64,000 bases of DNA from Patescibacteria group bacterium (GTDB taxonomy: Bacteria; Patescibacteriota; Patescibacteriia; JAHIZJ01): NCBI GenBank assembly GCA_041661625.1, contig JBAZUB010000002.1, positions 28,059 through 92,058 on the forward strand. The letters run 5' to 3'. Below the pieces are notes generated by a model. The model was not told the origin of the DNA. It made no database searches and was given only the letters and a program-made list of their open reading frames with translations. The position numbers and the translations under genes are program-made. Shown piece by piece: positions 10,616 to 32,390 of the stretch; positions within the stretch are counted from its first letter, which is position 1, and every line of letters starts with the position of its first letter.

Positions 10616-10622
10616 TGTTCGT

Positions 10623-10656: not shown

Positions 10657-10658
10657 TA

Positions 10659-10688: not shown

Positions 10689-10725
10689 TATTAAAGACGC
10701 CTTTTGATTTCTAACCACTAACTTT

Positions 10726-13982: not shown

Positions 13983-14121
13983 TTGTAATGATACTCTTAA
14001 TTGCCGACTGTTAATGAAATAGCTAACTGGATGGCAGAAAACAGCCTCTACTCCCAACCTCGTTACACTATTTCTTTACCCACCTTACGCTTACCCCAAT
14101 GGTATATGGTTGCTCGAAGCT

Positions 14122-16093: not shown

Positions 16094-16111
16094 TTGTATA
16101 ATTGTAGTACC

Positions 16112-16159
16112 GTGTGGACAAAAAAGCAAAAAAAAGACGGGGAACATTGCCATTCCCCG
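16112..16159 (-). terminator. Rho-independent terminator on minus strand (cggggaa cattgcca ttccccg followed by TCTTTTTTTTGCTTTTTT)
   Basis: 7-bp stem and long U-tract immediately downstream of the P-loop kinase gene. Confidence 0.55.
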
Positions 16160-16188
16160 ACTAACCTTCGGATTACCGCTGATGTCCC

Positions 16189-16749: not shown

Positions 16750-17174
16750 GATCCCTCCTCCATCAATAGTCGGGTCTGTTCTTCAGATTCCGCCGGCGTG
16801 TGAGGCCCGTGTGCCACGTTTCTGATAATGCTTTCAGCCCATAGCATGCGGATACCGGAAGCCGGCTCCCTCTTGCCGATGATTTCTCGCACTTTGCGAA
16901 TGGCGTCTTCACCCTCCACGATGAAGATGTGTAAGGGTGCCGAAGCCATGAACTCGACCAGCTCAGGAAAGTAGTCACGGTGAGAAAATTCTCGATACAG
17001 TTCGGTGGCAGTTGCGACCGTGATCGTCTTCCTTCTCTCCTCGACGACTCTTAACTGAGCAGCCACTATCAATTCCCGGATCCTGTCAACCAGCCCCTTA
17101 GCTACCCCGTCGGGTTTCACTAGGAGCATCGACCTTTCCACGGCGCACATTACTCCCTCCCTTGGGGTAACCAC
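16746..17174 (-). CDS. nucleoside-diphosphate-kinase-like protein (divergent)
   Basis: 142 aa; ERSMLLVKPDGV and NVAHGPHTPAESE resemble NDK N-terminal and NxxHGSD regions but active-site motif is altered. Confidence 0.5.
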   Translation of the reverse strand: MVTPREGVMCAVERSMLLVKPDGVAKGLVDRIRELIVAAQLRVVEERRKTITVATATELYREFSHRDYFPELVEFMASAPLHIFIVEGEDAIRKVREIIGKREPASGIRMLWAESIIRNVAHGPHTPAESEEQTRLLMEEGS

Positions 17175-17923
17175 TGGCTTGGCCAGTCTATGTCTACTGA
17201 GACCAGTCGGCCATCAGGAAGCAAAGCAAACTCCCATGTCGGCATCGGTGCGATACGCGCGAGTTGTGCGAACGCATACGAATGAGACTGAAGCGTGTGG
17301 CATATGCTCCGGATAACCGTCGCAGGCAATATGTTGGCATATCCGACCTCGCGTAGTCGATATGAAGCCTCGATGTAGTCTGAGTAGTCGAGTGTGAATT
17401 GCTGTAATTCTCCCGTATACGCGGGCAATTGCCGATCGAACAGAATCTTGTTCGGCAAAACACCCCGCTGCATCTCAAGCACCTGACGATCACCATCGAG
17501 ATACAGCACATGTCCCGCGATGGATTCCGGTCCCCAAATCACCGGGGTAAACTCGACCCAGGTAGCTGGTCGCAGTTTTAGAATCTCTTGGAGCGCCCGA
17601 CCTTGATCGATAATGCGTTTACGACCCTGGTCGTCTCTCCACTCCACCGTATGATCGCTTTGAATCTGGAACAGAGGCGGAACCGCAGTCAACATCGGTT
17701 TCTCGGAAACGATTACCAGGAATGCCTCACCGTGGGCGAGGTGGTCATGGTAAATCCGAGACACTTGATCCTGATCACTTACGGATACAGCACATGGTTC
17801 ACCATCAGATGGTAGACCAAGACCTCTCATCAATGCTCGTTTCTGGAGACGTATCGGGAGAGCTAGGTCAATCCCAAACTCTCGGGAATGGCTGACCAGA
17901 AAATCGTCTTTCATGACGGTCAT
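17150..17923 (-). CDS. hypothetical protein (257 aa), GC-rich, in kinase/NDK block
   Basis: ORF in operon context; no motif recognised. Confidence 0.4.
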   Translation of the reverse strand: MTVMKDDFLVSHSREFGIDLALPIRLQKRALMRGLGLPSDGEPCAVSVSDQDQVSRIYHDHLAHGEAFLVIVSEKPMLTAVPPLFQIQSDHTVEWRDDQGRKRIIDQGRALQEILKLRPATWVEFTPVIWGPESIAGHVLYLDGDRQVLEMQRGVLPNKILFDRQLPAYTGELQQFTLDYSDYIEASYRLREVGYANILPATVIRSICHTLQSHSYAFAQLARIAPMPTWEFALLPDGRLVSVDIDWPSQWLPQGRE

Positions 17924-17999
17924 TAGCCCCTCCTTTGAGGTTTGAGGTTTTTTGTCACGACTATCCGGCAGTTTTCACCGGTAGCGATTGTCTACTATG

Positions 18000-18764
18000 T
18001 CAAAGGTCATAAAGAGCGAATAGACCACTGTATGGCTTTTTTGTAATTTTGTCAAGGTCCTTCTGGTTATGCAGGCTCCACCAATTACCACGATAACGAT
18101 AGACCTGTAGTGATTTAGGATCACTAGAAAATAGGTCTTCGTTCACTTCATCGAGATCGCTGGGAATGTTTTGTGCTGTGTACTGTCTCAATAACTGTGG
18201 TCGAATAATCATGCAGCCGGGTGACCACATATGTTGTAGCTTCGTCCGTCTAGATGATTTAATTTGATTCACTCCTTTAGCTGTGCCTACGCTGATTACC
18301 TTTCCTTGGCTAAACATAAGTTGTAAATGCGTGTCCGCTTCCTTATGTCTGTTGGTTACAAGTAATACGCTTTTGTCTGATGGTAATCCATGTATAATCA
18401 ACTTCGTAAAAAGATCCGGCGATAAGAGTACGTTGCCATCGCAATACAAGAATGGCTTTGTCCATTTCATTGTTGCCGCGCGTAGACGAGCAGGAAGGCT
18501 CATGTTCGGCGTATATTTTCCAAAGTGTATGCTGACCCCCCGTGATTTCCAATACGCCCGCGTCCTTGCAGCACTGCGATTGTGTTCTGGCCAGCCAAGA
18601 AGTACTACTGACCGTACGTTAGCTTGTTTTGCCATGGCAATGAGGTAATACAATAGCGGCTGGTTGGCGATTGGATAAAGCACTTTTGGGCCACGGTATT
18701 TTATTTTCTTAAAATAGTCGGAAATGCGTTGCCCGCGTCCCCCGACCGCAATTACCATTTTCAT
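18000..18764 (-). CDS. sugar-1-phosphate nucleotidylyltransferase (GlmU/RmlA-like N-terminal fold)
   Basis: 254 aa; MKMVIAVGGRGQRI...PKVLYPIANQPLLYYLI matches NTP-transferase signature. Confidence 0.65.
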   Translation of the reverse strand: MKMVIAVGGRGQRISDYFKKIKYRGPKVLYPIANQPLLYYLIAMAKQANVRSVVLLGWPEHNRSAARTRAYWKSRGVSIHFGKYTPNMSLPARLRAATMKWTKPFLYCDGNVLLSPDLFTKLIIHGLPSDKSVLLVTNRHKEADTHLQLMFSQGKVISVGTAKGVNQIKSSRRTKLQHMWSPGCMIIRPQLLRQYTAQNIPSDLDEVNEDLFSSDPKSLQVYRYRGNWWSLHNQKDLDKITKKPYSGLFALYDL

Positions 18765-18807
18765 AGTATGTATCTAAAGTAATATATAACTGTTGATTAT
18801 CTATTTG

Positions 18808-19521
18808 CTATTGGGGGTATTCTGGTTTCCATCCAATAGCATTCTTTACGCTGTGTATTCGTCCGGGATTATTGGAAACGGCATAAAATGTCGTAAAACG
18901 TCCCGGTATCTTTTTTATCTGCACAGCTTTTAAGATCACACTCACACAATCCTGATGATATAATATCACGCGATCATATAAGGGATCTTCGTTGTATCGA
19001 ATCTCGTTTGTCGTATTCACACCCCCGAAACGAATACAAACAACTTCGAGGTTGTGATGTACCGCATAATAATTTCCCAAGCGTTCACCATACACCTTAC
19101 TGGCTCCGTAGGGTGTATCAGGAATTGGGATCGTACTTGTTGTTTTCTCACCTTCACGCATTAAATGGTATGTATCTGCGTGAACAGAGCTGGCAAGAAT
19201 AACTCGTCGTACACCCGCTGCTACTGCAGCTCGGAAAATATTTTCCAGCATTACTTTGTTGTCGGCTACACTGTGCTCGTTTGGATAATCTTCAGCAACG
19301 TTCCAGGCTAAATGGATGAGCACATCGTGGCCTTTAACGAGCGTATACAGCTTATGATATTCCCGGGCGATGTTAACACGTTTAACCGATTTGTTACTCT
19401 TCTGATTTATATCAATGCAGGTAACGGGGTATTTACGCAGTAAAACAGGGCAGATAATTGTGCCAATATTACCCAAGGCTCCGGTTACCACTACTCGGGG
19501 ATGCGAACGATATAATCTCAT
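18808..19521 (-). CDS. NAD-dependent epimerase/dehydratase (SDR family)
   Basis: 237 aa; VVVTGALGNIGTII Rossmann motif, YGASK catalytic Y-x3-K. Confidence 0.7.
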   Translation of the reverse strand: MRLYRSHPRVVVTGALGNIGTIICPVLLRKYPVTCIDINQKSNKSVKRVNIAREYHKLYTLVKGHDVLIHLAWNVAEDYPNEHSVADNKVMLENIFRAAVAAGVRRVILASSVHADTYHLMREGEKTTSTIPIPDTPYGASKVYGERLGNYYAVHHNLEVVCIRFGGVNTTNEIRYNEDPLYDRVILYHQDCVSVILKAVQIKKIPGRFTTFYAVSNNPGRIHSVKNAIGWKPEYPQ

Positions 19522-21122
19522 CGATTTATTTCTGCAAATGCTCTCAGTACTGCAGATATTGTGGCATCAAGATCCTCCCTATCTAACCCGGGGTTTACAT
19601 AGAGATTAAATAGCCGCTTGGTGACCTCTTGGGATACCGGACAATCATTTACGTGTGAGCTTTTTAACAACTCCACTTCGGGCAGAGACAGCGGGTAAAG
19701 CTTTTTTATCGGGATTCCTAATTGCATTACCCGATTAAGAAACATATCACGCTTCTCTATCAGGCCTGCTGGCAGTAATCCAGTCAGGTAAAAATAGGCG
19801 TGTTCAGAATTTGGATCTGTTTTCTGAAAAGTGATTCCACTTCCCGCTATCTTTTTCTGCAGATAATTTGCATTATTTCGGCGTATTTGATTATTGACAT
19901 CAAGCCGTTTATTTTGCTCAATAGCAATCGCGGCCTGAATATCTGTAAGTTGGTAATTAAAACCCAGGCGATTATAGTCATACGCATCCAGATCTTCTTG
20001 ATTGATGCCATTATTTGCGTCCGAACGTATATGGCTGTAGTACTTTTCATTATTTGTGGCTATTAAGCCACCCTCCCCGCAAACTATATGTTTCGTTTGA
20101 TAAAGACTTGTGCAGATGATGTCACCATACGAACCAACGTACTTTCCATTATATCTCGCGCCCGTAGCTTGGGCGCAATCCTCTATCAGCACTAACTTAT
20201 GTTTATCGCAGATTATCCTCAGCGCGTTCAAATTGACTGGCTGACCATACATATGGACAACGATAACTGCCTTAGTGTGCTTGGTGATTTTCTTTATAAC
20301 GTCTTTGGGATCAATATTAAAAGTTTCAGCCTCAATGTCAGCGAATATCGGTTTCGCTCCAACTTGTAATACCGTTGAGCAATCCGCAATATTGGCCAGT
20401 GCGGGGACGATCACTTCATCGTTGGATTGAAGATCTAAAGCAGAAAGAGCAAGATGTAGCGCGGATGTACCAGAATTGACGGCATTGACAAAACGCTGTG
20501 ATAACATACGAGATATCACATCTTGAAATTCGCGGACTACTGGACCTCCTTCCGGTCTCGATAATATTCCGGAATGTAGCACTCGTACAACAGCCTCGGT
20601 TTCTTCGTCGCCGATCAGATGCGCATTTATTTTTTGCATCATTTGAGCAATATGCGCTTTGGCATCGTTGTTATCCGGTTGTTTACTACTATAGTGTTCA
20701 TGAATCATATCTCGGACTGCGTTTGGCCGAAGTTCATAGTTTCTGATATCGACAACATCAATCCAGACTAACTCATAGGTACCCACATAATGAGTTCCGT
20801 ATTGATACTCGGGTCCGAAAGCATTTCCCAGAATGCCACCCGTTATTTCGCAAAGAAAAAATAATTCAGTCTGACCCAGTGTGTCTGGATGTCCCGACGA
20901 TTGCTTAGTAAATAGCTCTTTTACTCTTATGTCCACACCAAGCTCTTCGTGGCACTCTCTCTGAACGGCTTGTTCTGGTGTTTCATTATTGTCGACTCCT
21001 CCGCCAGGAAATACCCAGTATGCCTCTTGTCCGGGTTTGGTTCTTTTTATAACTAACACGTGGTTTTGATGGATTATCACCGCTCGCGCTCTTAATTTAT
21101 CCTTCGTTTTTTGATTCGTCAT
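19518..21122 (-). CDS. fusion protein: N-terminal Nudix hydrolase + C-terminal DegT/DnrJ/EryC1/StrS PLP-dependent sugar aminotransferase
   Basis: 534 aa; Nudix box GGGVDNNETPEQAVQRECHEELGV; DegT motifs AVNSGTSALHLAL, VIVVHMYGQP, IEDCAQATGA, TKHIVCGEGG. Confidence 0.8.
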   Translation of the reverse strand: MTNQKTKDKLRARAVIIHQNHVLVIKRTKPGQEAYWVFPGGGVDNNETPEQAVQRECHEELGVDIRVKELFTKQSSGHPDTLGQTELFFLCEITGGILGNAFGPEYQYGTHYVGTYELVWIDVVDIRNYELRPNAVRDMIHEHYSSKQPDNNDAKAHIAQMMQKINAHLIGDEETEAVVRVLHSGILSRPEGGPVVREFQDVISRMLSQRFVNAVNSGTSALHLALSALDLQSNDEVIVPALANIADCSTVLQVGAKPIFADIEAETFNIDPKDVIKKITKHTKAVIVVHMYGQPVNLNALRIICDKHKLVLIEDCAQATGARYNGKYVGSYGDIICTSLYQTKHIVCGEGGLIATNNEKYYSHIRSDANNGINQEDLDAYDYNRLGFNYQLTDIQAAIAIEQNKRLDVNNQIRRNNANYLQKKIAGSGITFQKTDPNSEHAYFYLTGLLPAGLIEKRDMFLNRVMQLGIPIKKLYPLSLPEVELLKSSHVNDCPVSQEVTKRLFNLYVNPGLDREDLDATISAVLRAFAEINR

Positions 21123-21445
21123 GGTGGTGTTTTTATAAAGAGTGGTTATTTATATTGAATTCCCCGTTTTTACAAAAGATTCATACACATCGTATAGACT
21201 GATGATTTGCTGTACATATAGAAATTATTACTAAACAACATATATTATATAGGTTATTCGACTAATTGGACAGTGGTAAACAAAAGCTGATTCCACAATA
21301 AATCTGGTGGTATTACGATATTCAAAAGATGGCAAATACTAGCTCCCAGTCTGATTCACACCGAAAAAGCGAGGCTTTAATATGCCCAGTATGTATGGAA
21401 TTATTCCGTATCATTGTTCTGTTCTGTATGAAAACGCCAAAAATG

Positions 21446-21504
21446 TGTTATAATGCAGACAACACATAAACATATTGACAAAATTACACTATTTCTGCTA
21501 AGGT
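21446..21504 (+). promoter_or_regulatory. Candidate promoter region for Panacea operon (extended -10 TGtTATAAT at 21446-21454; alternative TTGACA-18-TAAGGT at 21475-21504)
   Basis: Motifs read directly in AT-rich intergenic region upstream of 21527. Confidence 0.4.
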
Positions 21505-21526
21505 TTCGGTCATTAAGCAAGAAACT

Positions 21527-22030
21527 ATGACCCCAGTAGCGGGAACAAAACAACAAGAGAAGGTCACCTATCAGGACGTAGCTGATTACTTCTTGGCATT
21601 GGGAAATGAAACAGGTGAGCCAATATCCAATCTTAAGCTCCAGAAGCTTGTCTACTATGCACAAGCTTGGCATCTAGCAAATACATCGGAGCCTCTATTT
21701 AATGCTAACTTTCAAGCTTGGGTACATGGTCCCGTTATACCTGAGTTGTACCACAAGTTAAAGACGTATGGATCAGCGCCTATTCAGAGTAACGCCGTCT
21801 TAAATGAAGTAAAAAACAGATTTGATTCCAATACACTAACTTTCTTAGAACAGGTTGCAGATGTGTATATGCCTAGAAGTGCTTATGAATTGGAGTTGAT
21901 GACACATATGGAGGATCCGTGGATTCTCGCGAGAGTTGGGCTTGAGCCAAACCAAGGAAGCGAAAATACTATCTCTGAGGAAATCATGGCTAGATTCTAT
22001 GGGGCAAAAATACACAGTAGAACCAAGTAG
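21527..22030 (+). CDS. Panacea-domain (DUF4065) protein, SocA/PanA-like antitoxin
   Basis: 167 aa; YFLALGNETGEPISNLKLQKLVYYAQAWHLA...FQAWVHGPVIPELY matches DUF4065 core. Confidence 0.75.
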   Translation: MTPVAGTKQQEKVTYQDVADYFLALGNETGEPISNLKLQKLVYYAQAWHLANTSEPLFNANFQAWVHGPVIPELYHKLKTYGSAPIQSNAVLNEVKNRFDSNTLTFLEQVADVYMPRSAYELELMTHMEDPWILARVGLEPNQGSENTISEEIMARFYGAKIHSRTK

Positions 22031-22439
22031 CATCCCTCAGAGAACTGAATTAGTTAATCCAACGACTGTTAATCCAAATCAGAACGTTTCTTTTAATTTT
22101 CGTCCTTTATGTACTAAAGGCGGTAAGTTTGAGTACAACAATAGGGAGCGAGGATATTTTGTTAAACTCCTCGAACGACTGCGCGATCTTTCGACAATGA
22201 GTAGGGGGCAACTTATAGCACCAGGCGGAAAAGGATTACGGTGTCATCCTATACGGTTCACCGACCAAGGAGTGAGTGAATCGTCATTTGGTATACCTGG
22301 GCAAGACATTGATGAAGATGCGTGGCAATTTGAAATCTCTTCTAATAAGCACGGTCGTGTTCATGGATACTTTGTAGGTAGCGTATTTTATATAGTGTGG
22401 CTTGACCCTGATCATGCACTTTATCCTAGGCAGCGATAA
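21999..22439 (+). CDS. hypothetical protein (146 aa), overlaps antitoxin-like gene by 32 nt; candidate toxin/partner
   Basis: Start chosen at MGQKYTVEPSS; C-terminal HGRVHGYFVGSVFYIVWLDPDHALYP; stop abuts SIR2 start (TAAATG). Confidence 0.45.
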   Translation: MGQKYTVEPSSIPQRTELVNPTTVNPNQNVSFNFRPLCTKGGKFEYNNRERGYFVKLLERLRDLSTMSRGQLIAPGGKGLRCHPIRFTDQGVSESSFGIPGQDIDEDAWQFEISSNKHGRVHGYFVGSVFYIVWLDPDHALYPRQR

Positions 22440-23420
22440 ATGGGTACACACAATTTAGTATTGTTAACCGGTGCTGGCTTCTCCAAAAACTTTGGAGGTT
22501 TTTTGGCTGCAGAAATGTGGTCGCATATATTTAATCACCCATTAACTAAAAGACACGCTGAATTGCGTAAGTTGCTAATGGCTGATCAGGATTATGAATC
22601 AGTATACACACTGGTTATGACTGGTAATGGTTTTTCTCCTGAGTGCCGAAACGATTTCAACATTGTTGTTGAGCAAGCCTATAAAGCGTTAGACGATACA
22701 TTGAGAAAATGGCAATTCACGGGCGAGCTAAATCAAGTAAATACTTATGGTATCGGCAAGCTGTTAAGCCTTTTTAATTCCCCCCATGATCGCTGCTATT
22801 TCTTTACATTAAACCAAGATCTATTCATGGAAAGATGGTGGGGATACAGGGCACCGAGTGTTCGTTGGTTTCCTGAACAATTTTACTCTCTTCATGGCGC
22901 TGAATTGGAACATAAGGATTTCATAAAACTACCGTCATCTATGGATGAAAAAACTGTGAATGAAGCGATAGCACTACATAGCGGCTTAACGTATATTAAA
23001 ATACACGGTTCTTACGGATGGCTATCTTCTGATGGTAAAAACTTAATGGTGATTGGAAAGGATAAAACGATCGCCATTTCAGCAGAGCCAGTATTGCGGA
23101 GATATTTTGATATATTCAAAAAGGTAATGAGCGAGGGACAAAAAAAGCTGCTAATAATTGGATATGGATTTGGGGATTCTCACATTAACCAAGTTATTGC
23201 CGATGCAGTCCGGAATAGAGGATTAAAGGTATGTATTGTTTCAACAAGTCCATATAAGGACTTATATTCTCGTATAGAACAAAACTATCCAGATGCCTTA
23301 GACATCCTTGATATCGGATTGGATGGCTATTTCCCTTACAGTCTTGCGCAAGTCTTTCCTGGTGATCAATCTGAAACCGTATACTTCGAGGAGATCAAAC
23401 GTAATCTTTCCGGCATCTAA
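22440..23420 (+). CDS. SIR2_2-domain protein (putative NAD+-consuming defence effector)
   Basis: 326 aa; LVLLTGAGFSKNFGG, FFTLNQDLFMERW (cf. TTNYD), KIHGSYGW, LLIIGYGFGDSHINQ correspond to SIR2_2 (PF13289) conserved blocks. Confidence 0.7.
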   Translation: MGTHNLVLLTGAGFSKNFGGFLAAEMWSHIFNHPLTKRHAELRKLLMADQDYESVYTLVMTGNGFSPECRNDFNIVVEQAYKALDDTLRKWQFTGELNQVNTYGIGKLLSLFNSPHDRCYFFTLNQDLFMERWWGYRAPSVRWFPEQFYSLHGAELEHKDFIKLPSSMDEKTVNEAIALHSGLTYIKIHGSYGWLSSDGKNLMVIGKDKTIAISAEPVLRRYFDIFKKVMSEGQKKLLIIGYGFGDSHINQVIADAVRNRGLKVCIVSTSPYKDLYSRIEQNYPDALDILDIGLDGYFPYSLAQVFPGDQSETVYFEEIKRNLSGI

Positions 23421-24871
23421 ATTTTACGCCATTTTTCTTCCCGGTCACGTTGCTCATATAGTTCAAAAAGTCCTTGTAAAATACTATAAAAATCAGAGAC
23501 CAACATACCCCACCCAATTTCAATGTGTTTTACGTCAAAGTGGAACTCGGGTTTCTCCTGACCCCACACGACGTCCACAGGTTGGAGGCTTTTAATGATA
23601 CTCAAGTTTCCTCCGATAATTGAGTCAAGCATTTTTTGTAAACCAGATAGCCTCGTTTCAAAATCATCTATGGAGTCGCCATATCGTTTCTGCAATTCAA
23701 GTTTATCCGAAAGTCCTTGCTTTATTATGTTTACTATATGAAATACTGCATTTTTATATAGTTCTTTATTGCCTGAGTGATCAGTGTCTGCATTGAGTGA
23801 GTAGCTCAATCTCCGAAAGTCTAGGACTTGCTCTCGATCTTTGAGCTGCTCGACATTAAAATTAAGGAGTCTTTCTATTCGATGCTTGTTACTTCCGAGA
23901 TAATGCTCGATCGGCTTCCAAAGTAGTACCTCAAACGGAGTCTCATCCGGCCATAGCTTCATTAGATGAAGCTTTGTTTTTAAGCAATAGTCAAAAACTA
24001 TTTGAGCAAGTGTTATATGTGAAGATTGCGGAAATGAATAATCTAAAGAAATAACTTTCTCACCGTGTATTATTTTACTTCTGAGTTGGTAAAAAGAGTC
24101 TGACCAGTTCGCGATTTCTTTCTTCTGTCCCAGAAGAAGTTGTATGCGGTCGCCCATTTCCTGTCCTTTACGACTATACTGTTGAATATTCAAGAGGGTT
24201 TCTAATGCGACTCCTAGGGAAATAATCATGTCTTCAGAAGTGACTAGTGGATCGGCAACATGGGAACGATTATACCAATATACTGATCTAAGAATCCTTT
24301 CTGCCTCAAGTTTTTCATCTTTCGTTCCGTTTGCTCTCCTTTCATTAAGTGTGCAAAGTGCTGAAAATATATCTTTTGATACCTCTCGGCTTACGTTTGT
24401 TACATTGATATAAAACGGGGTTTGTATTTTTGTTTCATCAATCATTAGTATATGGATACCGCGTCTTGAGTGCAATGAAAGGCCGCCACTTGTTTTATCT
24501 AGATTGAGTTCATAGGAATCCGATTTGAAATTCTCATAGGAGGACGGAAAAAACCTTTTCTGATGGCTTAAGTTTGCATAAGCTACAATGTTTGTTGCTG
24601 TAATTAACTCATCGTCGACTTTTTTATCGTATTGAGCAAAATTGTCTTTGCCGTCGCTAAGCCTTGATGCAATAACAGGATTTGCTAGCTGACTGTTATC
24701 GATAAAACCTCGATAAATTTTTACCAACTGATCAACACGTTGAGCGGCGTTTGAGATTTTCCCAAAACGCTTTTGTTTTTCTTTTAGATATGGCCAAAAG
24801 CAAATATCACCAATAGTAACAGACTCGTCGAGTTCTAGATAGGGGAATATTGTAAATGCTATTTTAGTCAT
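23417..24871 (-). CDS. hypothetical protein (484 aa) with HEPN-like R-x4-HG motif (FYQLRSKIIHGEKV)
   Basis: Large ORF converging on SIR2 gene with 4-nt 3' overlap; motif-level only. Confidence 0.5.
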   Translation of the reverse strand: MTKIAFTIFPYLELDESVTIGDICFWPYLKEKQKRFGKISNAAQRVDQLVKIYRGFIDNSQLANPVIASRLSDGKDNFAQYDKKVDDELITATNIVAYANLSHQKRFFPSSYENFKSDSYELNLDKTSGGLSLHSRRGIHILMIDETKIQTPFYINVTNVSREVSKDIFSALCTLNERRANGTKDEKLEAERILRSVYWYNRSHVADPLVTSEDMIISLGVALETLLNIQQYSRKGQEMGDRIQLLLGQKKEIANWSDSFYQLRSKIIHGEKVISLDYSFPQSSHITLAQIVFDYCLKTKLHLMKLWPDETPFEVLLWKPIEHYLGSNKHRIERLLNFNVEQLKDREQVLDFRRLSYSLNADTDHSGNKELYKNAVFHIVNIIKQGLSDKLELQKRYGDSIDDFETRLSGLQKMLDSIIGGNLSIIKSLQPVDVVWGQEKPEFHFDVKHIEIGWGMLVSDFYSILQGLFELYEQRDREEKWRKI

Positions 24872-24884
24872 TATAAGTTAGCGA

Positions 24885-26723
24885 TTATTGTCTTCTTGGA
24901 TCATCTGCTGAATAAGTTTTACCGTTCTGCCAATCAAACATAAAACCAAAATTGGTTTGTAGCCATTTGCCAAGATCTGTAATATACTCCCACACTTTAT
25001 CTCGGTCACCGCCTGTACTAAGTTTGATATATACTTCTTTTACCTCCCTCTGTATCGCTTCCCGATATTTGCTTTGAGAAAGTTTGTTCTTTATCCAATC
25101 AGGTATTCCTTCCCCCATGAACTCGACCACTTTTTGTTTATCTGAATGGGCGGCAGCTAGCGCTCCCACTGAAACCATAAGCTGGATCGTGTCGCCAGCA
25201 AGTTTATCTAAACCAGCTAATTCGTATTCTTTGTATAGTTCATGTAGGCGCATTACGGCAAGTGATGCACCACGGCTATTACCTATAGGTATTGCGCTTT
25301 CAGCAAAGCTACTATAAACCCACGCTAAATCATACAACCAATGCGATAAATCGGCACTTATACCTTCACGTTTAGACAGCTCTTTCTTTTTTTGTATGAG
25401 TGGTTTTGCTACTACGCTAATTGCATCAAAGTACACCAAGGGATACCAATCAGGCTTATTGTTTCGATAAGCGCTATCAAACGAAAGAAGTGTATTATAA
25501 TAGGCACCAAAAAAACTTGTATAATCATAGTTGGGCATTATCGGCTGGTTTGTAAAATCATAACTTGGAATCAGCCTTTCGCCTAACCAACCAAGATCCC
25601 GAAAAACGCCATCCAAATCATTTTCTGAATGATCTGTAAATAACATTTCCCCAATTTTTCTATACCCATACATAATGTTCACAAATAGAGGATTGTGCGA
25701 CTCTATGCAGGAATCCGCAAGGTTTTTCCAAAATACTAATAGTTCAGCAAGATCGTTGTAATGTTTATTCTCAACAAATAATTCTGCTATACGTTGAGAG
25801 GCTTCATAAATTATCGATGCTGCGTTTTTCGAGTGATTATTAACAGCCAGCTCAACTAACAATTCGAGAGATTGTACAAAGAACGCTTGATAATAACCGC
25901 AAAGGTTTGAATCTGGATCCCAGCTATCATTTTTGTATTTTCTTCCCACTGTGTAGTTTTCTAGAAATGAAGTTGTCAATACCTCTACGGAGTCGCGAAA
26001 ATTTCTTAAGGTTGCGTAGTCTCCGCTTCGCACGGACTTTTCCGCAATGCTGAGCAATAACTCAAATGGATTTGGTGAATTAGATACTTGCTTAGTTAAT
26101 GAGGTATAAGCCGATCTTTGTCGTTCTTGTGTTATTGCTTTCTTTACATTTTCGTTCTCGATTTCTTTTATTTCTTCCGGAGTAAGGTCACCTTTGTTTG
26201 TAATATATCTATCATATTTTTCTATCTTATCTTGTGAAAGTATGCTTACAGCCTGAAACCATGGTGTGGTAGGATCCGGCACTCCATAACGATCAAGCAG
26301 GAAGCAGCGAATATCCCCATAGTTCATATTCTTTTGAATCGATTGTAAAAAGGTAGTTGGCCTAAGATAACGTGAAAAATAAAATGAGAGAATTATGAAT
26401 AATAAAAGCGACAATAATACAAATGCCAACGAAATTATACCAAGGTACCCGGATGAAAATAGATCCGTAAGATTAAAATCGAGTTGCGGAATTATATCAT
26501 GGTGGGTATACGAGATTGCGTATGAGGCAACGCTGGTAAATATAATACCTGCCAAACTGAAAGATATATAAGCAAGTAGTATTCGAGTTCGAAATATAAA
26601 GGAGATTGAACGATATGAGTAACTTCCATAGACAAGCTGTAGGTATACAAAAACAGCCGCAACGGATATACCAAATACCGTGACCTGTAAACTCAGTAAT
26701 GTATTATAATAGCTACTTAACAT
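24885..26723 (-). CDS. membrane protein (4 N-terminal TM helices + ~450-aa soluble domain)
   Basis: 612 aa; hydrophobic segments in first 120 aa; no recognisable catalytic motif. Confidence 0.5.
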   Translation of the reverse strand: MLSSYYNTLLSLQVTVFGISVAAVFVYLQLVYGSYSYRSISFIFRTRILLAYISFSLAGIIFTSVASYAISYTHHDIIPQLDFNLTDLFSSGYLGIISLAFVLLSLLLFIILSFYFSRYLRPTTFLQSIQKNMNYGDIRCFLLDRYGVPDPTTPWFQAVSILSQDKIEKYDRYITNKGDLTPEEIKEIENENVKKAITQERQRSAYTSLTKQVSNSPNPFELLLSIAEKSVRSGDYATLRNFRDSVEVLTTSFLENYTVGRKYKNDSWDPDSNLCGYYQAFFVQSLELLVELAVNNHSKNAASIIYEASQRIAELFVENKHYNDLAELLVFWKNLADSCIESHNPLFVNIMYGYRKIGEMLFTDHSENDLDGVFRDLGWLGERLIPSYDFTNQPIMPNYDYTSFFGAYYNTLLSFDSAYRNNKPDWYPLVYFDAISVVAKPLIQKKKELSKREGISADLSHWLYDLAWVYSSFAESAIPIGNSRGASLAVMRLHELYKEYELAGLDKLAGDTIQLMVSVGALAAAHSDKQKVVEFMGEGIPDWIKNKLSQSKYREAIQREVKEVYIKLSTGGDRDKVWEYITDLGKWLQTNFGFMFDWQNGKTYSADDPRRQ

Positions 26724-27123
26724 TTCTATTATTTTTTAGAGTTGAGAATCTCATGAATCGGTCAATAATTGGTTGTCGTTCAGCAATCAACAGATCAAGC
26801 TCTTCATCCGAAAGATCGGCAAAGGGGTCGCTTATGGCGACCTTAGTTGCTTTGTAGGACCCTTTTAGCTTATAGGCCTTATCCAACCCAGCTTCACGGG
26901 CCCGCCAATCGTGATTCTTAAGCAGCCCTTTATGGACGTTTAAGAGTGTTTCGTCGGGTAGGTGCTTATCCATTAACTCCTGCCATCCCTTGCTTCTGGT
27001 GAGCTCCTGGGGCTTCTCAGCTGAACGTGAACTGTACCCCGCCTCGCGCATGGCAGAGCTGACCGATTTTCGGGGTTTTTCGGAGATTATTCGAGCGACG
27101 CGTAGTTGTTTTTGGGTAGCCAT
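26713..27123 (-). CDS. phage terminase small-subunit-like HTH protein
   Basis: 136 aa; N-terminus MATQKQLRVARII...SAMREAGYSSRSAE resembles Terminase_2 motif (LTxKQ..F....A...AGYS). Confidence 0.4.
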   Translation of the reverse strand: MATQKQLRVARIISEKPRKSVSSAMREAGYSSRSAEKPQELTRSKGWQELMDKHLPDETLLNVHKGLLKNHDWRAREAGLDKAYKLKGSYKATKVAISDPFADLSDEELDLLIAERQPIIDRFMRFSTLKNNRNVK

Positions 27124-27169
27124 ATAGAGTCATTATACACCCAAAACAACGGCTTGTTTTAACCATTAT

Positions 27170-27700
27170 CTAATCTGGGAGCGTAAGCCAAAAACCATAG
27201 TAAGCGTTCCCACAAGACAATAACAACCCAACTAAATATAGTAGCCTATACCATTGGGGGGCGGCTTTTTCCGCAACGAAGTTAATTGTGAGAGAATATA
27301 TTAGAAAACCTAGTGGCGGAAACAGCCACGCGATAAGATTTAGAAAACCGATCACCCTAACTACGACTACTTTTTTGTTTTTCTTATTCGCATACCATTT
27401 CCCGATGTAATGCCCGATAGTGATGGCAGCGATTGCCGAACCTACAATAATGTAAAATGGCCGCTGCACACTGAGATCATGTGAACTCAGAACCAATTGA
27501 AGGGCAATGTACGCAATAAACATAATAGCAAAATATATGACTACCTCAATCACTCTGGCAATTTTCACTCCTATTGATACTAGCTCATCATTACTATCCC
27601 TGTCATTATCTTGCTTCTTTTCTTTGGCTAATTCAGCCCCGCAGCTTCCACAAAATTTGTCTTTCAGTGTCGTTTCCTTCCCGCAATTTTGACAGTACAT
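27170..27700 (-). CDS. zinc-ribbon (CxxC-x10-CxxC) membrane protein
   Basis: 176 aa; MYCQNCGKET...CGSCGAEL then four hydrophobic helices. Confidence 0.45.
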   Translation of the reverse strand: MYCQNCGKETTLKDKFCGSCGAELAKEKKQDNDRDSNDELVSIGVKIARVIEVVIYFAIMFIAYIALQLVLSSHDLSVQRPFYIIVGSAIAAITIGHYIGKWYANKKNKKVVVVRVIGFLNLIAWLFPPLGFLIYSLTINFVAEKAAPQWYRLLYLVGLLLSCGNAYYGFWLTLPD

Positions 27701-27750
27701 AGACGTGTTATTAGTTATTTAGAGTTGGTTACATTTATCACGATAAACAA

Positions 27751-27884
27751 CCAGCAGATATTGCTGGCGCCGGTAAATCACAAAGCCCGCCGCCAGCGAT
27801 GACCTTTCGGCCACCTGCACCCCTTTCGGGATACAACCACTGCTGGTGCTCTGACGACGAGCCCAATATCCAGCAGTGGTTTTT
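27751..27884 (+). ncRNA. candidate small structured RNA (GC-rich islet ending in intrinsic terminator ccactgctgg..ccagcagtgg+TTTTT)
   Basis: GC-rich hairpin-dense ~135 nt in AT-rich intergenic region; 10-bp stem + U5 at 27837-27884. Confidence 0.25.
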
Positions 27885-27993
27885 GTACCATGCCACGGTT
27901 TGCGCCGTGGTTTAGGCACCAAATTGTAAGTAATTCCCTAATATCGGAATTACCTATATAATTGTACTATATTTTGTCGACATTTTCAATAAT

Positions 27994-28821
27994 ATGAAGG
28001 TATATTTCGATAGCAAAACGTTTGACTCTTATATTAAGGCAAACAAAAAGCTGGTACTGTCGACCAAGAAGTGTCTGCCAAGAAAACGACGATATTTAAT
28101 CGACCTTGGAATCATTTCGGCCGGCATACATGGAACAGACAATTTGATACGTAAGCAGTTTATCATTGGAAAAGTAGATAGCGAATCAAGATATGGATTA
28201 TATTCAGATCGTAGTAAAGAATATGACAAATTAGCAATAGAAAAAGAACTGTTGATAAAAAAGCTGATCCCCTCCAGGTTGATGATCAGAAGTGCTATTA
28301 TTGATCAGGCTTATGTTGAAATTATGGATATTGCGAATCGCGGCGTACAAGCTAATCCTGATGAAATAAGTACCGTTAGCTTCTTAGAAAACTGTGTAGA
28401 AATATATTTTCCATATTTGTTAAATGATCTAATTGGTTATTCCAAAATATCTAAATTAAAGATGTTTAGAGTTAAATCGGGGCGGCGATTTAATACTGTC
28501 TGCCAAAGATGTGGGGCGCCATTAAAGCGAACAAACACAAAAACAAAACTAATGCCGGTCGTCAATGATAATATTTGGTACGTATATACGCCCAGTCATT
28601 GCTATAGATCAGAAAACAGATCTTGCTCAGAAAGTAGAAATAAAAGGCAGAGTCCAAAATTAAAACCACCTTATGTTGCTGTGGGCAATTGCGTATTTTG
28701 TCATGTAATTACCACATCGGTAATAACAAAGAAAATACATGGAGCGGTATATAACTTTTGTAGCCAATCACACTACCAAAGCATGCGAAGGGCTCTAGTA
28801 AGGCGAAAACAAAGGGAGTAA
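27994..28821 (+). CDS. hypothetical protein with C-terminal FCS/TRASH-like zinc-binding motif
   Basis: 275 aa; C-terminal CQRCG...C..C and CVFCHV...YNFCSQSHY pattern. Confidence 0.4.
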   Translation: MKVYFDSKTFDSYIKANKKLVLSTKKCLPRKRRYLIDLGIISAGIHGTDNLIRKQFIIGKVDSESRYGLYSDRSKEYDKLAIEKELLIKKLIPSRLMIRSAIIDQAYVEIMDIANRGVQANPDEISTVSFLENCVEIYFPYLLNDLIGYSKISKLKMFRVKSGRRFNTVCQRCGAPLKRTNTKTKLMPVVNDNIWYVYTPSHCYRSENRSCSESRNKRQSPKLKPPYVAVGNCVFCHVITTSVITKKIHGAVYNFCSQSHYQSMRRALVRRKQRE

Positions 28822-29153
28822 TTGAGTCTGTCTCACTTTCTGTGTGGCATTATAGGCAGCTGAAAAAACAGCTGTTTTATAATTGGCTCATTCGTGAAGG
28901 GGCATACCCGTAGTGCTGCTAGAACGATATAAAACAAATCTAGCAAAGGTTACGGGCTTGTACGTGAAGGACTGCTGACGGTGATGATAGAGGGCGCGCT
29001 CTGCAGAATCTAACGGCTCAATCTAACTATCAAATATGGTTGATAAAAAAGCCAGTTAGAACAAACAGGGCTGTCAGGTCAGGACTATAAATATATATCA
29101 CCAGAAGCAGGGAGCAGAGCGGGAAGGTCTAAATCTTAATATCCGGAGTCGCA

Positions 29154-29315
29154 ATGTCGACAAAGCAACAAAAAAGAGAAACCAGACAAGCGAGAATTCA
29201 TCTTAAGTATCACAAAATTCTTAAAGTCACGGCATTTAATCGAGGTATGACAATATCGCGCTTACTTGATGAAGTAATAGAGGATTATTTTGGAATTAAA
29301 GGAGAGAAGGAATAG
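29154..29315 (+). CDS. ribbon-helix-helix (Arc/CopG-like) small DNA-binding protein (53 aa)
   Basis: Hand-translated ORF MSTKQQKRETRQARIHLKYHKILKVTAFNRGMTISRLLDEVIEDYFGIKGEKE; beta-strand/helix/G-x-T-x-S/helix pattern of RHH fold; below ORF-track cutoff. Confidence 0.4.
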   Translation: MSTKQQKRETRQARIHLKYHKILKVTAFNRGMTISRLLDEVIEDYFGIKGEKE

Positions 29316-29582
29316 TGTGACCGGCAAAGATAGTCTGATAATAGAGCAGGATATTATTTGAATGATGGTTGGGGAGTGTATTCAAATAGCCATAAAATCT
29401 TCGAAGGAATGATTTCTAGTAATGCATACAAACAAGATCAGCCCCAAGTCAGTTATCAATACGCGGGCCGGGTAACTGACGATAGCGACTATTTGAATTA
29501 TGCATTTGATATGCTATTTGAAGAAATTATGAAGCAAAACAACTTATTGACAACTAATGACAATTAGGATTATACTGTAATC

Positions 29583-29765
29583 ATGGAATTTCTTACTAGA
29601 GATGAGGTAGCCAAATACTTCAGGGTGCACCCCCGTACGGTTATGCGCTGGCTCAAACAGGGCAGTCTTAGGGGCTACAAATTAGGCACAGGTAAAACCG
29701 CCCTACTTCGCATATCCAAGTCCGAGATTGAAAGATTTATGGAAAAATCTAAGATCACAAAATGA
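29583..29765 (+). CDS. excisionase-family helix-turn-helix DNA-binding protein
   Basis: 60 aa; LTRDEVAKYFRVHPRTVMRWLKQGSL matches HTH_17/Xis family; 4-nt overlap with recombinase start. Confidence 0.7.
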   Translation: MEFLTRDEVAKYFRVHPRTVMRWLKQGSLRGYKLGTGKTALLRISKSEIERFMEKSKITK

Positions 29766-31513
29766 ACTCTACTGCTGACAAACAAGTTAAGCTGATCGCC
29801 ACGTACGCGCGTGTTTCAACGTCTCATCAGGAGGAACAACAAACGATACAAAACCAGTTAACCGCACTGCGTGAGTTTGCCAATAAGAATAATTACACGA
29901 TAGTCGAGGAATACACAGATGATGGCTGGAGCGGCGATATGCTGGCTAGGCCATCGCTTGATAAGCTTCGTCAGGATGTAAAGAACAAGATTTGGGAAGC
30001 GGTGCTTATTTATGACCCCGATCGTCTAGCTCGTCGTTACTCATATCAGGAGCTGGTAATGGATGAGTTGCGGGAAGCTGGAATTGAGGTAATGTTCATT
30101 ACCGTTACTGCTCCCAAAAACGACGAAGATAAGATATTGCACGGAGTAAGGGGTTTGTTTGCCGAATACGAGCGGGCGAAAATATCGGAGCGTTTCCGTC
30201 TCGGTAAACTTCGCAAGGTCAAAGAGGGGCATATTTTGGTGAGCGAGCCACTGTATGGCTATAACTATATTCCCAAACAAGACGACCGGCACGGCTACTA
30301 TAAGATCAACCCGGAGGAAGCGCGCGTTATCAAAATGATATTTTCGTGGGTAGCAGACGAAGGTTTGACCATTAGAGCGGTAATCAGAAGGCTACAGGAA
30401 ATGGGAATAAAGCCGCGCAAGAGCAAACGAGGAGTTTGGAGCACCAGCACATTGAGCACGCTGTTACGCCACCGTGCGTATATCGGCGAGGAACACTGGG
30501 GGAGTTCCTACGCGGTGGTTCCAGACAATCCGCTCAAGCACGAAAAATATAAGAAGATGAAGAAAACTAGTCGTCGGAAAAAGCCTAAAGAGGAATGGTT
30601 TACTATACCTGTACCCGCAATTATAAAAGCAGAAGTGTTTGAGAAAGTAGGGCGGCAGCTACAAGCAAACTATACTTTTTGCCAGCGTAACAAGAAGAAC
30701 GAATATTTACTGTCTGGTAAAATAGAGTGTGCTTGTGGGAGAAAACGGGCAGGAGAAGGCGCTTTGCAAGGTAAGCACCTATACTATCGTTGTGCTGACA
30801 GGGTTTACAGTTTTCCACTGCCTCATAAATGTAGAGAAAAAGGCATCAATGCCAGAATAGCTGACGATCTGGTATGGCAGAAAATAACAAAGCTAATGAC
30901 TTCGCCGGAGCTACTTTCTCAGCAGGTCAGTCGCTGGTTTAAGAGTAGGCAGGATAAATCTCAAGCGGCATTCGTTGACGTTGATTCGCTTAAAGGGCAG
31001 GTTGAGAAGCTCAAGGGGCAGGAGGAGCGTTATAACAAAGCCTACGGCGCGGGAGTGTTCAATCTGGAACAGCTTAAGGAGTACACGTCTCCCATTAGGG
31101 AAAAGATCGGTCAGATCGGTAAACAGATAATTGGCGCTAACCGTGAAGCCAACAGAATACAGCTAGAAGTGCCCGATCAGACCGAGATGGTATCATTCAC
31201 CCAGAAAGCAAGAACGACGTTACAGGACTTGAATTTTGAGGCAAAAAGGGCGATAATATTGAACACGGTCGAAAGAGTTGTAGGTACAAAGCAGAATTTA
31301 CAAGTATTCGGATATATTCCAATCACTCAAAATGTCTCATTCAACACTATCGGTCGGTATAGTCGGGCTGCCAAATGTCGGGAAATCCACCCTCTTCCAG
31401 GCGCTGACCAAAAAACAAGTCGATACTTCAAACTACCCTTTTGCCACTATCGATCCGAACGTAGGCGTGGTAGCCGTGCCCGACGCACGGTTAGACGCAT
31501 TGGCCAAGTTTAG
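29762..31513 (+). CDS. large serine recombinase (resolvase catalytic domain + recombinase domain + zinc ribbon + coiled coil)
   Basis: N-term LIATYARVSTSHQ..., AVLIYDPDRLARR; Cys pairs C..C and C..C; ORF continues 180 nt into ychF in another frame so true 3' end uncertain. Confidence 0.8.
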   Translation: MNSTADKQVKLIATYARVSTSHQEEQQTIQNQLTALREFANKNNYTIVEEYTDDGWSGDMLARPSLDKLRQDVKNKIWEAVLIYDPDRLARRYSYQELVMDELREAGIEVMFITVTAPKNDEDKILHGVRGLFAEYERAKISERFRLGKLRKVKEGHILVSEPLYGYNYIPKQDDRHGYYKINPEEARVIKMIFSWVADEGLTIRAVIRRLQEMGIKPRKSKRGVWSTSTLSTLLRHRAYIGEEHWGSSYAVVPDNPLKHEKYKKMKKTSRRKKPKEEWFTIPVPAIIKAEVFEKVGRQLQANYTFCQRNKKNEYLLSGKIECACGRKRAGEGALQGKHLYYRCADRVYSFPLPHKCREKGINARIADDLVWQKITKLMTSPELLSQQVSRWFKSRQDKSQAAFVDVDSLKGQVEKLKGQEERYNKAYGAGVFNLEQLKEYTSPIREKIGQIGKQIIGANREANRIQLEVPDQTEMVSFTQKARTTLQDLNFEAKRAIILNTVERVVGTKQNLQVFGYIPITQNVSFNTIGRYSRAAKCREIHPLPGADQKTSRYFKLPFCHYRSERRRGSRARRTVRRIGQV

Positions 31514-32390
31514 TGATTCCAAGAAAACGGTACCGACAACGATCGAATTTACCGATATTGCCGGCCTGGTGAAGGGAGCCTCTCAAGGTGAGGGTCTGGG
31601 TAATAAATTTCTCAATAACATCCGCCAGGTAGACGCCATCTGTCACGTGGTGCGTTCGTTTAGCGACCCTAATGTGGTGCACGTGGCTGGAAAAGTCGAT
31701 CCCGAATCGGATCAGCAGACGATTTTGTACGAATTAGCCATGGCCGATCTCGAGCAGGTTGCCCGAGCGATAGACCAAGCCAACGGCAAGGCCCGTTCGG
31801 GCGACAAAGACGCGATCAAACTTTTGGCTGTACTAGAAAAGATTAAGGCTGTGCTGGATCAAGGTCAACCCGCTGGAACGATTGATCTGGATGAAAGCGC
31901 GATTGAATTATTGAAACCGTTCAATCTGCTGACTATGAAGCCGATTCTGACAGTTCTTAATGTTGATGAAAACGACTATCAGCAAGTTGGCCACACATTA
32001 AAAATATCCGTGAAATTAGAGGCCGAGCTGGCCGGCTTCAGCCTCGAGGAAGCTAAAGAATATCTGGCTGGATTAGGTTGGGCGGAAAGTGGTCTCGATC
32101 GGTTGATTAGGGCCAGCTATGATCTGCTCGGTCTGATCACTTTTTTTACCACCGGCGAAAAAGAGTCGCGTGCATGGACTATTACAAAAGGTAACAAAGC
32201 GCCCCAAGCCGCCGGAGTGATTCACACTGATTTCGAAAAGGGCTTTATTCGCGCCGAAGTGATCAATTGGAAGGACTTGATCGATGCCGGCTCGGAAGCC
32301 AACGCCAAGGCTGAAGGCCTAATGCGCATGGAAGGTAAAGAATACGTGTTTCAGGATGGGGATACAACAGAGTTTCATTTTTCTGCTTGA
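31332..32390 (+). CDS. ychF: ribosome-binding ATPase YchF (Obg-family GTPase)
   Basis: 352 aa; VGIVGLPNVGKSTLFQALT, NYPFATIDPNVG, TGS C-terminal domain. Confidence 0.9.
   Translation: MSHSTLSVGIVGLPNVGKSTLFQALTKKQVDTSNYPFATIDPNVGVVAVPDARLDALAKFSDSKKTVPTTIEFTDIAGLVKGASQGEGLGNKFLNNIRQVDAICHVVRSFSDPNVVHVAGKVDPESDQQTILYELAMADLEQVARAIDQANGKARSGDKDAIKLLAVLEKIKAVLDQGQPAGTIDLDESAIELLKPFNLLTMKPILTVLNVDENDYQQVGHTLKISVKLEAELAGFSLEEAKEYLAGLGWAESGLDRLIRASYDLLGLITFFTTGEKESRAWTITKGNKAPQAAGVIHTDFEKGFIRAEVINWKDLIDAGSEANAKAEGLMRMEGKEYVFQDGDTTEFHFSA

Follow-up and report, generated by a model that had tools for sequence, protein, structure and literature searches.

The stretch of DNA analysed here, a window of 64,000 nucleotides from a Patescibacteria group bacterium (GenBank assembly GCA_041661625.1, contig JBAZUB010000002.1, positions 28,059 to 92,058 of the forward strand), contains an integrated island whose right end carries the gene for a large serine recombinase (LSR) that overlaps the 5′ end of ychF. 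Positions given below are those of the window, and the features are collected in Table 1. The initial annotation, made from the letters and the open reading frames (ORFs) only, had described a cassette of a 53-aa ribbon-helix-helix (RHH) protein, a 69-aa protein, an excisionase-type helix-turn-helix (HTH) protein and a 583-aa LSR, and had taken it for the right end of an integrative element. All four ORFs are present, and the Pfam HTH_17 and excisionase PHROG matches of the third agree with the name given to it. For the first, the ORF stands and the RHH label is doubtful, as phrog_582 (Arc-like) matches at E=0.007 and Antitox_RHH at E=0.11, far under the cut-off; a tblastn search found no counterpart among the other fetched elements, and this ORF is particular to this element. 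The stop codon of the HTH_17 gene overlaps the LSR start (ATGA), and an HTH_17 gene lies 5′ of the LSR at 62-75% identity in the elements L001, L002, L003, L013 and L017. The 69-aa protein gave no match in the family searches; by tblastn, at least 23 other elements have a counterpart of 34-51% identity immediately 5′ of their HTH_17 gene. The protein is a candidate regulator or directionality factor.

The 583-aa protein is a large serine recombinase by its domains and fold, and not a short resolvase or invertase. Pfam places a Resolvase domain (PF00239, 3e-32) at residues 13-157, after which come a Recombinase domain (PF07508, 9.8e-20) at residues 184-302 and a zinc ribbon (Zn_ribbon_recom, PF13408, 2.8e-5) that is slightly short of the cut-off (24.8 versus 25.3 bits). 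In alignments of 20 and 33 homologues, R17-V18-S19 and C323/C325/C344/C357 are invariant, and the ORF in the window is unbroken with every invariant residue present. An AlphaFold model of the homologue P0014 (mean pLDDT 72.9) shows long paired helices at 382-429 and 435-465 and then a β-hairpin, which is LSR architecture. In Foldseek the top matches are the DNA complexes of SPbeta-type, PhiC31, Bxb1 and LI integrases (E 1e-17 to 1e-20), and similarity in sequence to the solved LSRs is limited to the catalytic domain. The initial annotation was thus right to call an LSR: the three-domain architecture and a coiled coil set it apart from the short resolvases or invertases that would have spoken against that call.

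At its 3′ end the LSR frame runs on into ychF. As initially annotated, ychF starts at 31332, the first start codon past an in-frame stop. The gene is full length with normal domains, about the first 9 codons being element-derived and the remainder host. The LSR frame is -1 relative to that of ychF, and the right-junction DNA (AATGTCTCATTCAACACTATCGGTCGGTATAGTCGGGCTGCC) reads NVSFNTIGRY.. in the LSR frame and MSHSTLSVGIVGLP in the ychF frame. The overlap of about 180 nt seen earlier is real and measures 182 nt (31332-31513), but the run is an out-of-frame read-through and not a genuine integrase C-terminus. The crossover can be placed at 31356-31360, inside the interval 31300-31520 that had been predicted for the core of the attachment (att) site.

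A protein search returned 2574 homologues, and the best 120 of these are 60-91% identical to the LSR; few of the best 120 have a named source, which is mostly a Patescibacteria metagenome-assembled genome (MAG) and in a few cases Bradyrhizobium. Lengths in the same set are 474-648 aa (nearly all 535-648), and the differences lie at the C-terminus only. The majority end in ..GYIP..NV.FKT..RNCR.AEC.EIH.., which is what the ychF P-loop DNA (GIVGLPNVGKSTLF) gives when read in the -1 frame. The overlap of LSR and ychF in the window is therefore a family trait and not an accident. Pattern matching finds ychF-derived ends in about 105 of the 120 and, in at least 13, an intact tail, ending in ..RHG.NT.RH......IPF.F.IKLPPP... 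In a metagenome scan by LSR alignment (80 loci), ychF begins inside the LSR 3′ end in 49, the tail is contiguous in frame in 23, and 8 are cut by contig ends. Residues 1-532/533 of the LSR are covered by tblastn in most ychF-junction loci, and the two that were looked up are intact called genes; some intact-tail genes adjoin relaxase and coupling-protein genes. The length of the run is unremarkable by itself: a read-through of 51 sense codons has an estimated chance of about 9% ((61/64)^51), and in the homologues the equivalent read-through stops at varied points, 15 to 127 residues past the last conserved LSR motif. What is beyond chance is the ychF junction, which recurs in those 49 of 80 independent loci.

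The true C-terminal piece of the LSR, 41 codons long, lies 17.5 kb away at the left junction (attL) and had escaped the initial annotation, as had the position of the element's own site (attP) inside the integrase gene. One frame of the left-junction sequence (ATGTCCTTCTCAGTCGGCATTGTACGAACACAACC) reads MSFSVGIV-RTQPNI-stop, a ychF start that ends after eight codons, and the other, from 13819, reads HCTNTTQHLERATNPKLIPFFFEIKLPATRSAVVHKETIHS and a stop, which is the missing LSR tail. The tails of intact homologues match the window here by tblastn (P0070 with 59% identity over 32 aa, E=3e-7, at 13816-13911 on the plus strand; P0014 with E=9e-4). The N-terminus of the stub is identical to the MSFS[VI]GIVGLPNVGKST of unoccupied ychF in L005, L006, L008, L010, L011, L036 and L038. 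A short-word blastn search of 31250-31600 against the whole window for direct repeats gave chance matches only, and attL was for this reason located via the protein tail. The flanking repeats that had been suggested as a guide reduce to an imperfect 14-mer (TCAGTCGGCATTGT / TCGGTCGGTATAGT), which is all that the junctions have in common, as expected of a serine integrase. Between the two left boundaries originally proposed, 13.7-14.1 kb contains the junction (at 13.8 kb), and 21.1-21.5 kb was rejected as it has no ychF stub, tail or repeat. A tRNA target was also rejected, the window having no tRNA genes.

The site without the island is found in a relative. In a scan with the window YchF as the query and one genome per species (80 loci), the nearest relative (L005, a Patescibacteria MAG with a YchF 78% identical) has the gene order glyA-folD-TSP3-ychF-...-methyltransferase without the island, and the window flanks have the same gene order, so that the comparison with relatives lacking the island, which had been advised, yields both an empty site and matching synteny. 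The N-terminus of YchF here is MSHSTLSVGIV, as against MSFSVGIV at empty sites and in the attL stub (empty-site form MSFS[VI]GIVG), and the occupied ychF genes, here and in L002, L003, L013 and L017, start with three additional element-type residues (MSHSTLSVGIVG, MSGSSHSIGIVG, MSGSKQTIGIVG, MPSSKLTVGIVG). From this difference between the N-termini of empty and occupied sites it follows that the element went into the 5′ end of ychF and also supplied a new 5′ end for the gene, two possibilities that had been put forward as alternatives and are both true. The island is inserted in ychF codons 5-7, at the start of the P-loop motif G-I-V-G-L-P-N-V-G-K-S, and with its copy of the displaced gene end it is a target-restoring integrative element. 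With the left junction, the tail piece and the empty site in hand, the cassette is indeed the right end of such an element. Immediately 5′ of the ancestral ychF start, on the minus strand at 12937-13740, lies a gene for an Asn/Ser/Thr-rich low-complexity protein with a C-terminal bacterial TSP3 repeat, the C-terminal part of which is conserved at the equivalent position in L005 and L037. In L010, where the ychF site is empty, a distant serine recombinase (895-1806, 23% identity to the window LSR) lies 5′ of glyA.

Ten elements of 7.0-17.5 kb, the window one included, have both junctions with identical geometry. Recombination takes place inside the coding sequence of the integrase: in these ten the tail is at attL and the body at the right junction (attR), and in 25 intact loci the two are contiguous. 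On two long contigs of the candidate phyla radiation (CPR), L002 (868 kb) and L003 (654 kb), the order is HTH_17-LSR-ychF, and a ychF stub with a full 52-aa LSR-frame tail lies about 7.1-7.7 kb 5′ of the LSR 3′ end. The intact locus L001 shows the permuted form: its contiguous segments 2290-4178 and 4208-4353 match the opposite ends of the L088 island (9135-11021 and 267-412) with about 77-78% nucleotide identity over module and tail, and this permutation is the expected attP versus attL/attR relationship. The ten islands match L001 in the recombination module and the tail only. In L135 (8435-8503) and L137 (5803-5871), a second tail-like coding piece lies about 2.2 kb 3′ of the intact LSR tail, which may be the remnant of another element or a tandem arrangement.

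The reconstructed attP, with the consensus A..ATGTCgaGTTCAaaaCt.tC.aTCGG.ATgG...GAACACAAcC.GACAT, is a 50-bp pseudo-palindrome, ATGTC-N19-GG-N19-GACAT, whose inverted arms are exactly centred on GG. The attP of A118 has the same size and layout, a pseudo-palindrome of about 50 bp with 25-bp half-sites round a central dinucleotide (PMC3783163). The attP signature occurs at 11 or more of 12 positions within the 3′ end of 20 of the 25 intact-tail genes, the Bradyrhizobium one included, and only 23 matches of this quality occur in 1.75 Mb of fetched loci. The site codes the LSR residues ..NV.F.T..R, then H..NTTRH.. : its ATGTC left arm is both the decoy ychF start (ATG TC) and the conserved LSR residues (N/H/Y)V, and its GACAT right arm gives the conserved tail residues RH. 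In Bradyrhizobium diazoefficiens (L004, AP014685), ATGTC-N19-GG-N19-GACAT is perfect at 11620-11720, and the LSR gene has the decoy ychF start MSSSKLAIG one frame off, yet ychF is not adjacent.

The sequences of attL and attR part directly past GGNAT, which bounds the crossover to GG or AT. The base before GG is host-type in attL and is T in 3 of 10, which would convert an invariant Arg to Trp, and the N of GGNAT differs between attL and attR in 6 of 10 pairs. The AT dinucleotide was the first choice for the crossover and was then ranked below GG, since the dyad is centred on GG and AT is palindromic. A palindromic dinucleotide such as AT could not set polarity. For these reasons, and from the intact GGCAC site of L001, a crossover at GG (13817-18 / 31356-57) is favoured over the neighbouring AT. 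A non-palindromic core is needed for polarity in Bxb1 and PhiC31, according to the passage of PMC3783163 that cites Ghosh 2003. The L001 site (4168-4200) has GGCAC as against GGNAT in all ten integrated elements, which lends GG slight support, and it could also be an inactive site. In the host site (attB), a ZD-type motif shifted 5 bp inward as in A118 was sought; a native ATGTC lies 9 bp closer on the left, and no clear right partner was found.

The detached tails are under purifying selection. Past the att half-site, the tails of the ten elements have a median proportion of nonsynonymous differences (pN) of 0.33 and of synonymous differences (pS) of 0.83, with pN<pS in 45 of 45 pairs; when these columns are translated in either of the other frames, pN equals or exceeds pS. 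The ratio of nonsynonymous to synonymous rates (dN/dS) of the closest tail pairs is 0.11-0.25. Elements whose LSR bodies are only 60-70% identical share the core tail motif K[LF]IPF.F.IKLP, which lies beyond the att half-site of about 25 bp, and all 25 intact genes retain the tail in frame. In the P0014 model a disordered linker (525-541) leads to the strand TIPFTFTIKL (547-555, pLDDT about 64-81), with two further short strands after it. As selection acts on the tail, it probably contributes to LSR activity.

Taken together, we consider it about 85% probable that this is a site-specific Patescibacteria island that was inserted by its own LSR into ychF, with attP inside the LSR 3′ end and the LSR tail swapped on integration. 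In this reading, one stretch of about 50 bp serves as recombination site, as LSR codons and, one frame off, as a decoy ychF start. Recombination of attP with attB joins the decoy start to the ychF body, and because of this fusion ychF stays intact, with an N-terminus three residues longer. Integration at the same time detaches the last 41 LSR codons, which come to lie at the other junction, past the native ychF start and presumed promoter that have lost their gene. The integrated LSR then has 583 aa and ends in 51 out-of-frame ychF residues, while a full-length 573-aa enzyme with the conserved tail (..K[LF]IPF.F.IKLP..) would be made from the excised form only. Excision would give back both the original ychF start and the 41-codon end of the LSR, presumably assisted by the HTH_17 protein and perhaps by the 69-aa protein.

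Transcription may be rewired by the same event. The site at 13743-13771 is presumed, from its consensus match and place, to be the native ychF promoter left behind at attL; it would now read a 14-codon stub and stop at the hairpin, whose position is also where the LSR transcript of the excised form would be expected to end. The gene ychF would be transcribed from the element, either via the site at 29547-29576 through HTH_17-LSR or from 31229-31257, a candidate element-borne ychF promoter within the LSR 3′ end. In as many as 51 of the 54 loci with a ychF junction, and in as many as 17 of the 25 with an intact tail, a match to the latter stands in the equivalent place.

Several observations weigh against this reading or parts of it. 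The Bradyrhizobium chromosome L004 keeps a full-length intact-tail LSR among insertion sequence (IS) and transfer genes. No terminal overlap was found in any of the 25 intact-tail contigs (0/25), which leaves their circularity unproven, and an excised circle or attP junction of the window element was not seen. The 45 pairs of the tail selection test are short sequences and not independent of one another. The tail in the window belongs to a short class, 41 aa versus about 52 elsewhere, and departs from the consensus past IKLP, so that this copy could be partly decayed. The counts of N in GGNAT (C35/A21/T20 at empty sites, A27/C13/T12 in attR, C6/T3/A1 in attL) do not separate GG from AT as the crossover. 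The promoter-like site at 31229-31257 overlaps conserved LSR codons, and its conservation may therefore reflect protein constraint only.

What the tail swap does is a separate matter. We tentatively suggest a state switch, which is possible rather than probable, in which only the excised circle codes an integration-competent full-length enzyme and the integrated form with its junk tail differs in activity, stability or directionality. Such a switch would be built into a very large family of serine integrases, of thousands of members, mostly in the CPR. The role of the tail would most likely be in integration or in the setting of directionality, and the swap would report the state of the element.

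The same anatomy could also have no functional meaning, with attP at the 3′ end of the gene for the sole reason that the element has to bring a ychF start beside the crossover in a compact genome, and with a truncated enzyme as active as the full one. All of the catalytic, recombinase, zinc-ribbon and coiled-coil parts are encoded 5′ of the crossover, a disordered linker to the tail is predicted, and the tail varies from 31 to about 52 aa with a distal part unconserved across the family, all of which a meaningless swap would allow. It would leave unexplained why K[LF]IPF.F.IKLP is kept at 60-70% body identity, why pN is below pS in every pair, in the LSR frame only and beyond the half-site, and why no intact gene has lost the tail; we regard this explanation as rather unlikely.

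Doubtful to a similar degree is a lock like that of the archaeal SSV-type integrases, called 'suicidal', in which the tail-less LSR would be inactive and excision would need the full-length enzyme of an incoming related element. There is precedent for it (PMC8371274), related elements are very common in the same habitats so that helpers would be available, and no excised form of an integrated element was detected. However, the part removed is limited to 41-52 C-terminal residues and includes no catalytic or DNA-binding domain, and the integrated LSR bodies appear as full-length genes. In all five elements checked, moreover, translation of the conserved HTH_17 gene is coupled to that of the LSR, and the gene is annotated in that position in the others inspected, which suggests a self-encoded, regulated excision.

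That the cassette is a fixed remnant, its ychF overlap left by an ancient insertion, is improbable. The window tail is shorter than most and atypical past IKLP, and the mobility of this copy is without direct evidence, as would be expected of a fossil; against this, the LSR reading frame is unbroken and keeps every invariant residue, the site is empty in the closest relative, the ten islands differ in size from 7.0 to 17.5 kb with matches to L001 limited to module and tail, and the G+C content of the island is well under that of its flanks. An invertase or resolvase of other purpose that lies next to ychF by coincidence, as some homologue database names ('DNA invertase') would have it, is scarcely credible in view of the three-domain LSR architecture with coiled coil, the ychF junction shared by 49 of 80 loci, and the matching attL junctions and empty sites.

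Table 1 Features of the island and its junctions in the 64,000-nucleotide window.
Position	Strand	Feature	Basis
13743..13771	+	Promoter-like site TTGACT-17-TAGATT, about 30 nt 5′ of ancestral ychF start	Consensus scan; putative function
13802..13846	+	Ancestral ychF 5′ stub, ATG + MSFSVGIV, then element DNA (RTQPNI-stop)	
13817..13821	+	attL crossover window GGCAT; favoured central dinucleotide GG 13817-13818	
13819..13944	+	Detached LSR 3′ piece, 41 codons (HCTNTTQHLERATNPKLIPFFFEIKLPATRSAVVHKETIHS) and stop, LSR frame	tblastn
13819..31357	.	Integrated island, 17,539 bp between junctions	Composition, ORFs, domains, junction spacing
13959..13980	.	Bidirectional intrinsic-terminator-like hairpin (CTCCCTTAGCTGGGAG plus T6), 15 nt past tail stop	
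14.1-21.1 kb		Sugar-nucleotide modification genes: FAD oxidoreductase, TIM-barrel isomerase, P-loop kinase, NDK, NTP transferase, epimerase, Nudix-DegT aminotransferase	
21.5-23.4 kb		SocA/Panacea and SIR2-like cluster	
23.4-28.8 kb		Membrane and unknown proteins	
29.1-31.4 kb		Recombination module	
29154..29315	+	53-aa ORF, possible RHH/Arc-like regulator	phrog_582 Arc-like E=0.007; Pfam Antitox_RHH E=0.11, far under cut-off
29358..29567	+	69-aa small protein of recombination module	tblastn conservation
29547..29576	+	Promoter-like site TTGACA-18-TATACT, 11/12 positions, preceding HTH_17-LSR pair	Consensus scan; putative function
29583..29765	+	HTH_17 (excisionase/MerR-like) protein, 60 aa	Pfam 6.7e-14; excisionase PHROGs
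29762..31513	+	LSR ORF, 583 aa, integrated state	ORF list and Pfam
29762..31357	+	LSR body from element, residues 1-532: catalytic, recombinase, zinc-ribbon and coiled-coil domains	Pfam; homologues 60-91% identical
31229..31257	+	Promoter-like site TTGAAT-17-GATAAT within LSR 3′ end, about 75 nt 5′ of ychF ATG	Consensus scan
31332..31357	+	attP left arm = decoy ychF 5′ end (ATG, MSHSTLSVG), -1 frame of LSR codons NVSFNTIGR	
31332..32390	+	Chimeric, intact ychF	Pfam MMR_HSR1 and YchF-GTPase_C; N-terminus versus empty sites
31356..31360	+	attR crossover window GGTAT; favoured central dinucleotide GG 31356-31357	
31358..31513	+	Out-of-frame read-through, 51 ychF codons in -1 frame and stop; replaces native LSR tail when integrated	

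The G+C content of the island is mostly 0.37-0.47 versus about 0.51 in the flanks, and the region of about 13-32 kb is at about 0.40 apart from 0.53 at 16-18 kb. This last segment (16189-17923, 1.7 kb, G+C 0.53) codes for a P-loop kinase-like protein, an NDK (1.6e-27) and a 257-aa unknown protein, with overlapping gene ends, and suggests mosaic cargo of different origin. Neighbouring ORFs overlap by 50-120 nt in two places (14122-15285/15236-16309 and 15236-16309/16189-16749), and the listed start of the 357-aa TIM-barrel ORF (TTG 16309) is probably too far upstream, because its Pfam match starts at residue 105. In the defence-like cluster, a SocA/Panacea antitoxin-domain protein (21527-22030), which has a homologue of 35% identity in the element L158 too, overlaps a 167-aa ORF (21936-22439) that matches phrog_8366; the stop of the latter abuts the gene of a SIR2_2 protein (22440-23420) that is matched by many PADLOC SIR2 models (best 1e-13). 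A 136-aa ORF without a family match on the minus strand (26713-27123) has a 43% identical counterpart in the L088 island, and may recur among these elements as a cargo or accessory gene. A phage or plasmid origin was rejected: at 60% identity or above neither IMG/VR, whose single hit is 28% identical, nor the plasmids of PLSDB, which hold only relatives of about 31% identity, contain the family, and PHROGs searches with eight island proteins found no structural phage genes.

Domain order, fold, an attP of about 50 bp and a protein-coding target are all shared with the known LSRs (PhiC31, Bxb1, A118/LI, SPbeta SprA, TP901-1 and TnpX). In contrast to these, attP here lies inside the recombinase's own gene, a conserved C-terminal tail is removed, and the site doubles as a replacement for the 5′ end of the target; unlike with phage LSRs, no phage genes were recognised in the window island. 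Mycobacteriophages BPs, Brujita and Charlie, described by Broussard et al. in 2013, reportedly have attP inside a phage gene, and integration is said to alter the C-terminus and behaviour of its product, a built-in sensor of the integrated state that underlies their integration-dependent immunity. That split gene is a repressor and the integrase a tyrosine recombinase, with the loss of a degradation tag reportedly demonstrated, whereas here the split gene is the serine LSR. The tyrosine integrases of archaeal SSV-type elements, pTN3 and pT26-2 have attP in the integrase gene and are complete only when excised, and a review holds such 'suicidal' recombinases to be exclusive to Archaea (PMC8371274). 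The likeness is that a gene is partitioned by its own integration; the archaeal enzymes are tyrosine recombinases, separated into N- and C-halves and inactivated, while here a serine recombinase of bacterial hosts loses its last 41-52 residues only. The LSR thus works like the suicidal class in one respect and is not a member of it, being a serine recombinase outside Phage_integr_3 (PF16795) in non-archaeal hosts.

The gene ychF has also been met as a target elsewhere. It is named as an LSR integration site of actinobacterial pipolins (PMC11551731), which have other hosts and carry piPolB, and the passages of that article on the subject describe no attP in the LSR gene, detached tail or replacement ychF start. 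A pneumococcal prophage remnant between dnaN and ychF changes ychF expression between its integrated and excised states (PMC6375853); it occupies the promoter region with 14-bp direct repeats and has no replacement start and no split integrase. In the literature searched, with most subscription journals outside the search, an LSR with attP in its own gene, a detached tail or a decoy ychF start is not described.

This LSR family would extend the self-splitting principle to bacterial serine integrases, in a milder and experimentally tractable form. If the state-switch reading is true, the archaeal self-splitting integrases would have their first counterpart among bacterial serine recombinases, and serine integrases a new mode of setting directionality. 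The 50-bp stretch, with two reading frames and a protein-binding site in triple use, is a natural example of overlapping codes, and out-of-frame ychF explains the odd, variable C-termini of hundreds of database recombinases. A defined attP, an attB in the P-loop of YchF/OLA1, which is among the most conserved coding motifs known, and a possibly self-contained directionality device are of interest for genome engineering, in which serine integrases are used as tools. For the Patescibacteria with their tiny genomes, the start of ychF looks like a major insertion hot-spot for islands with surface-sugar and defence-like genes, and the exact junctions allow such islands to be found and delimited.

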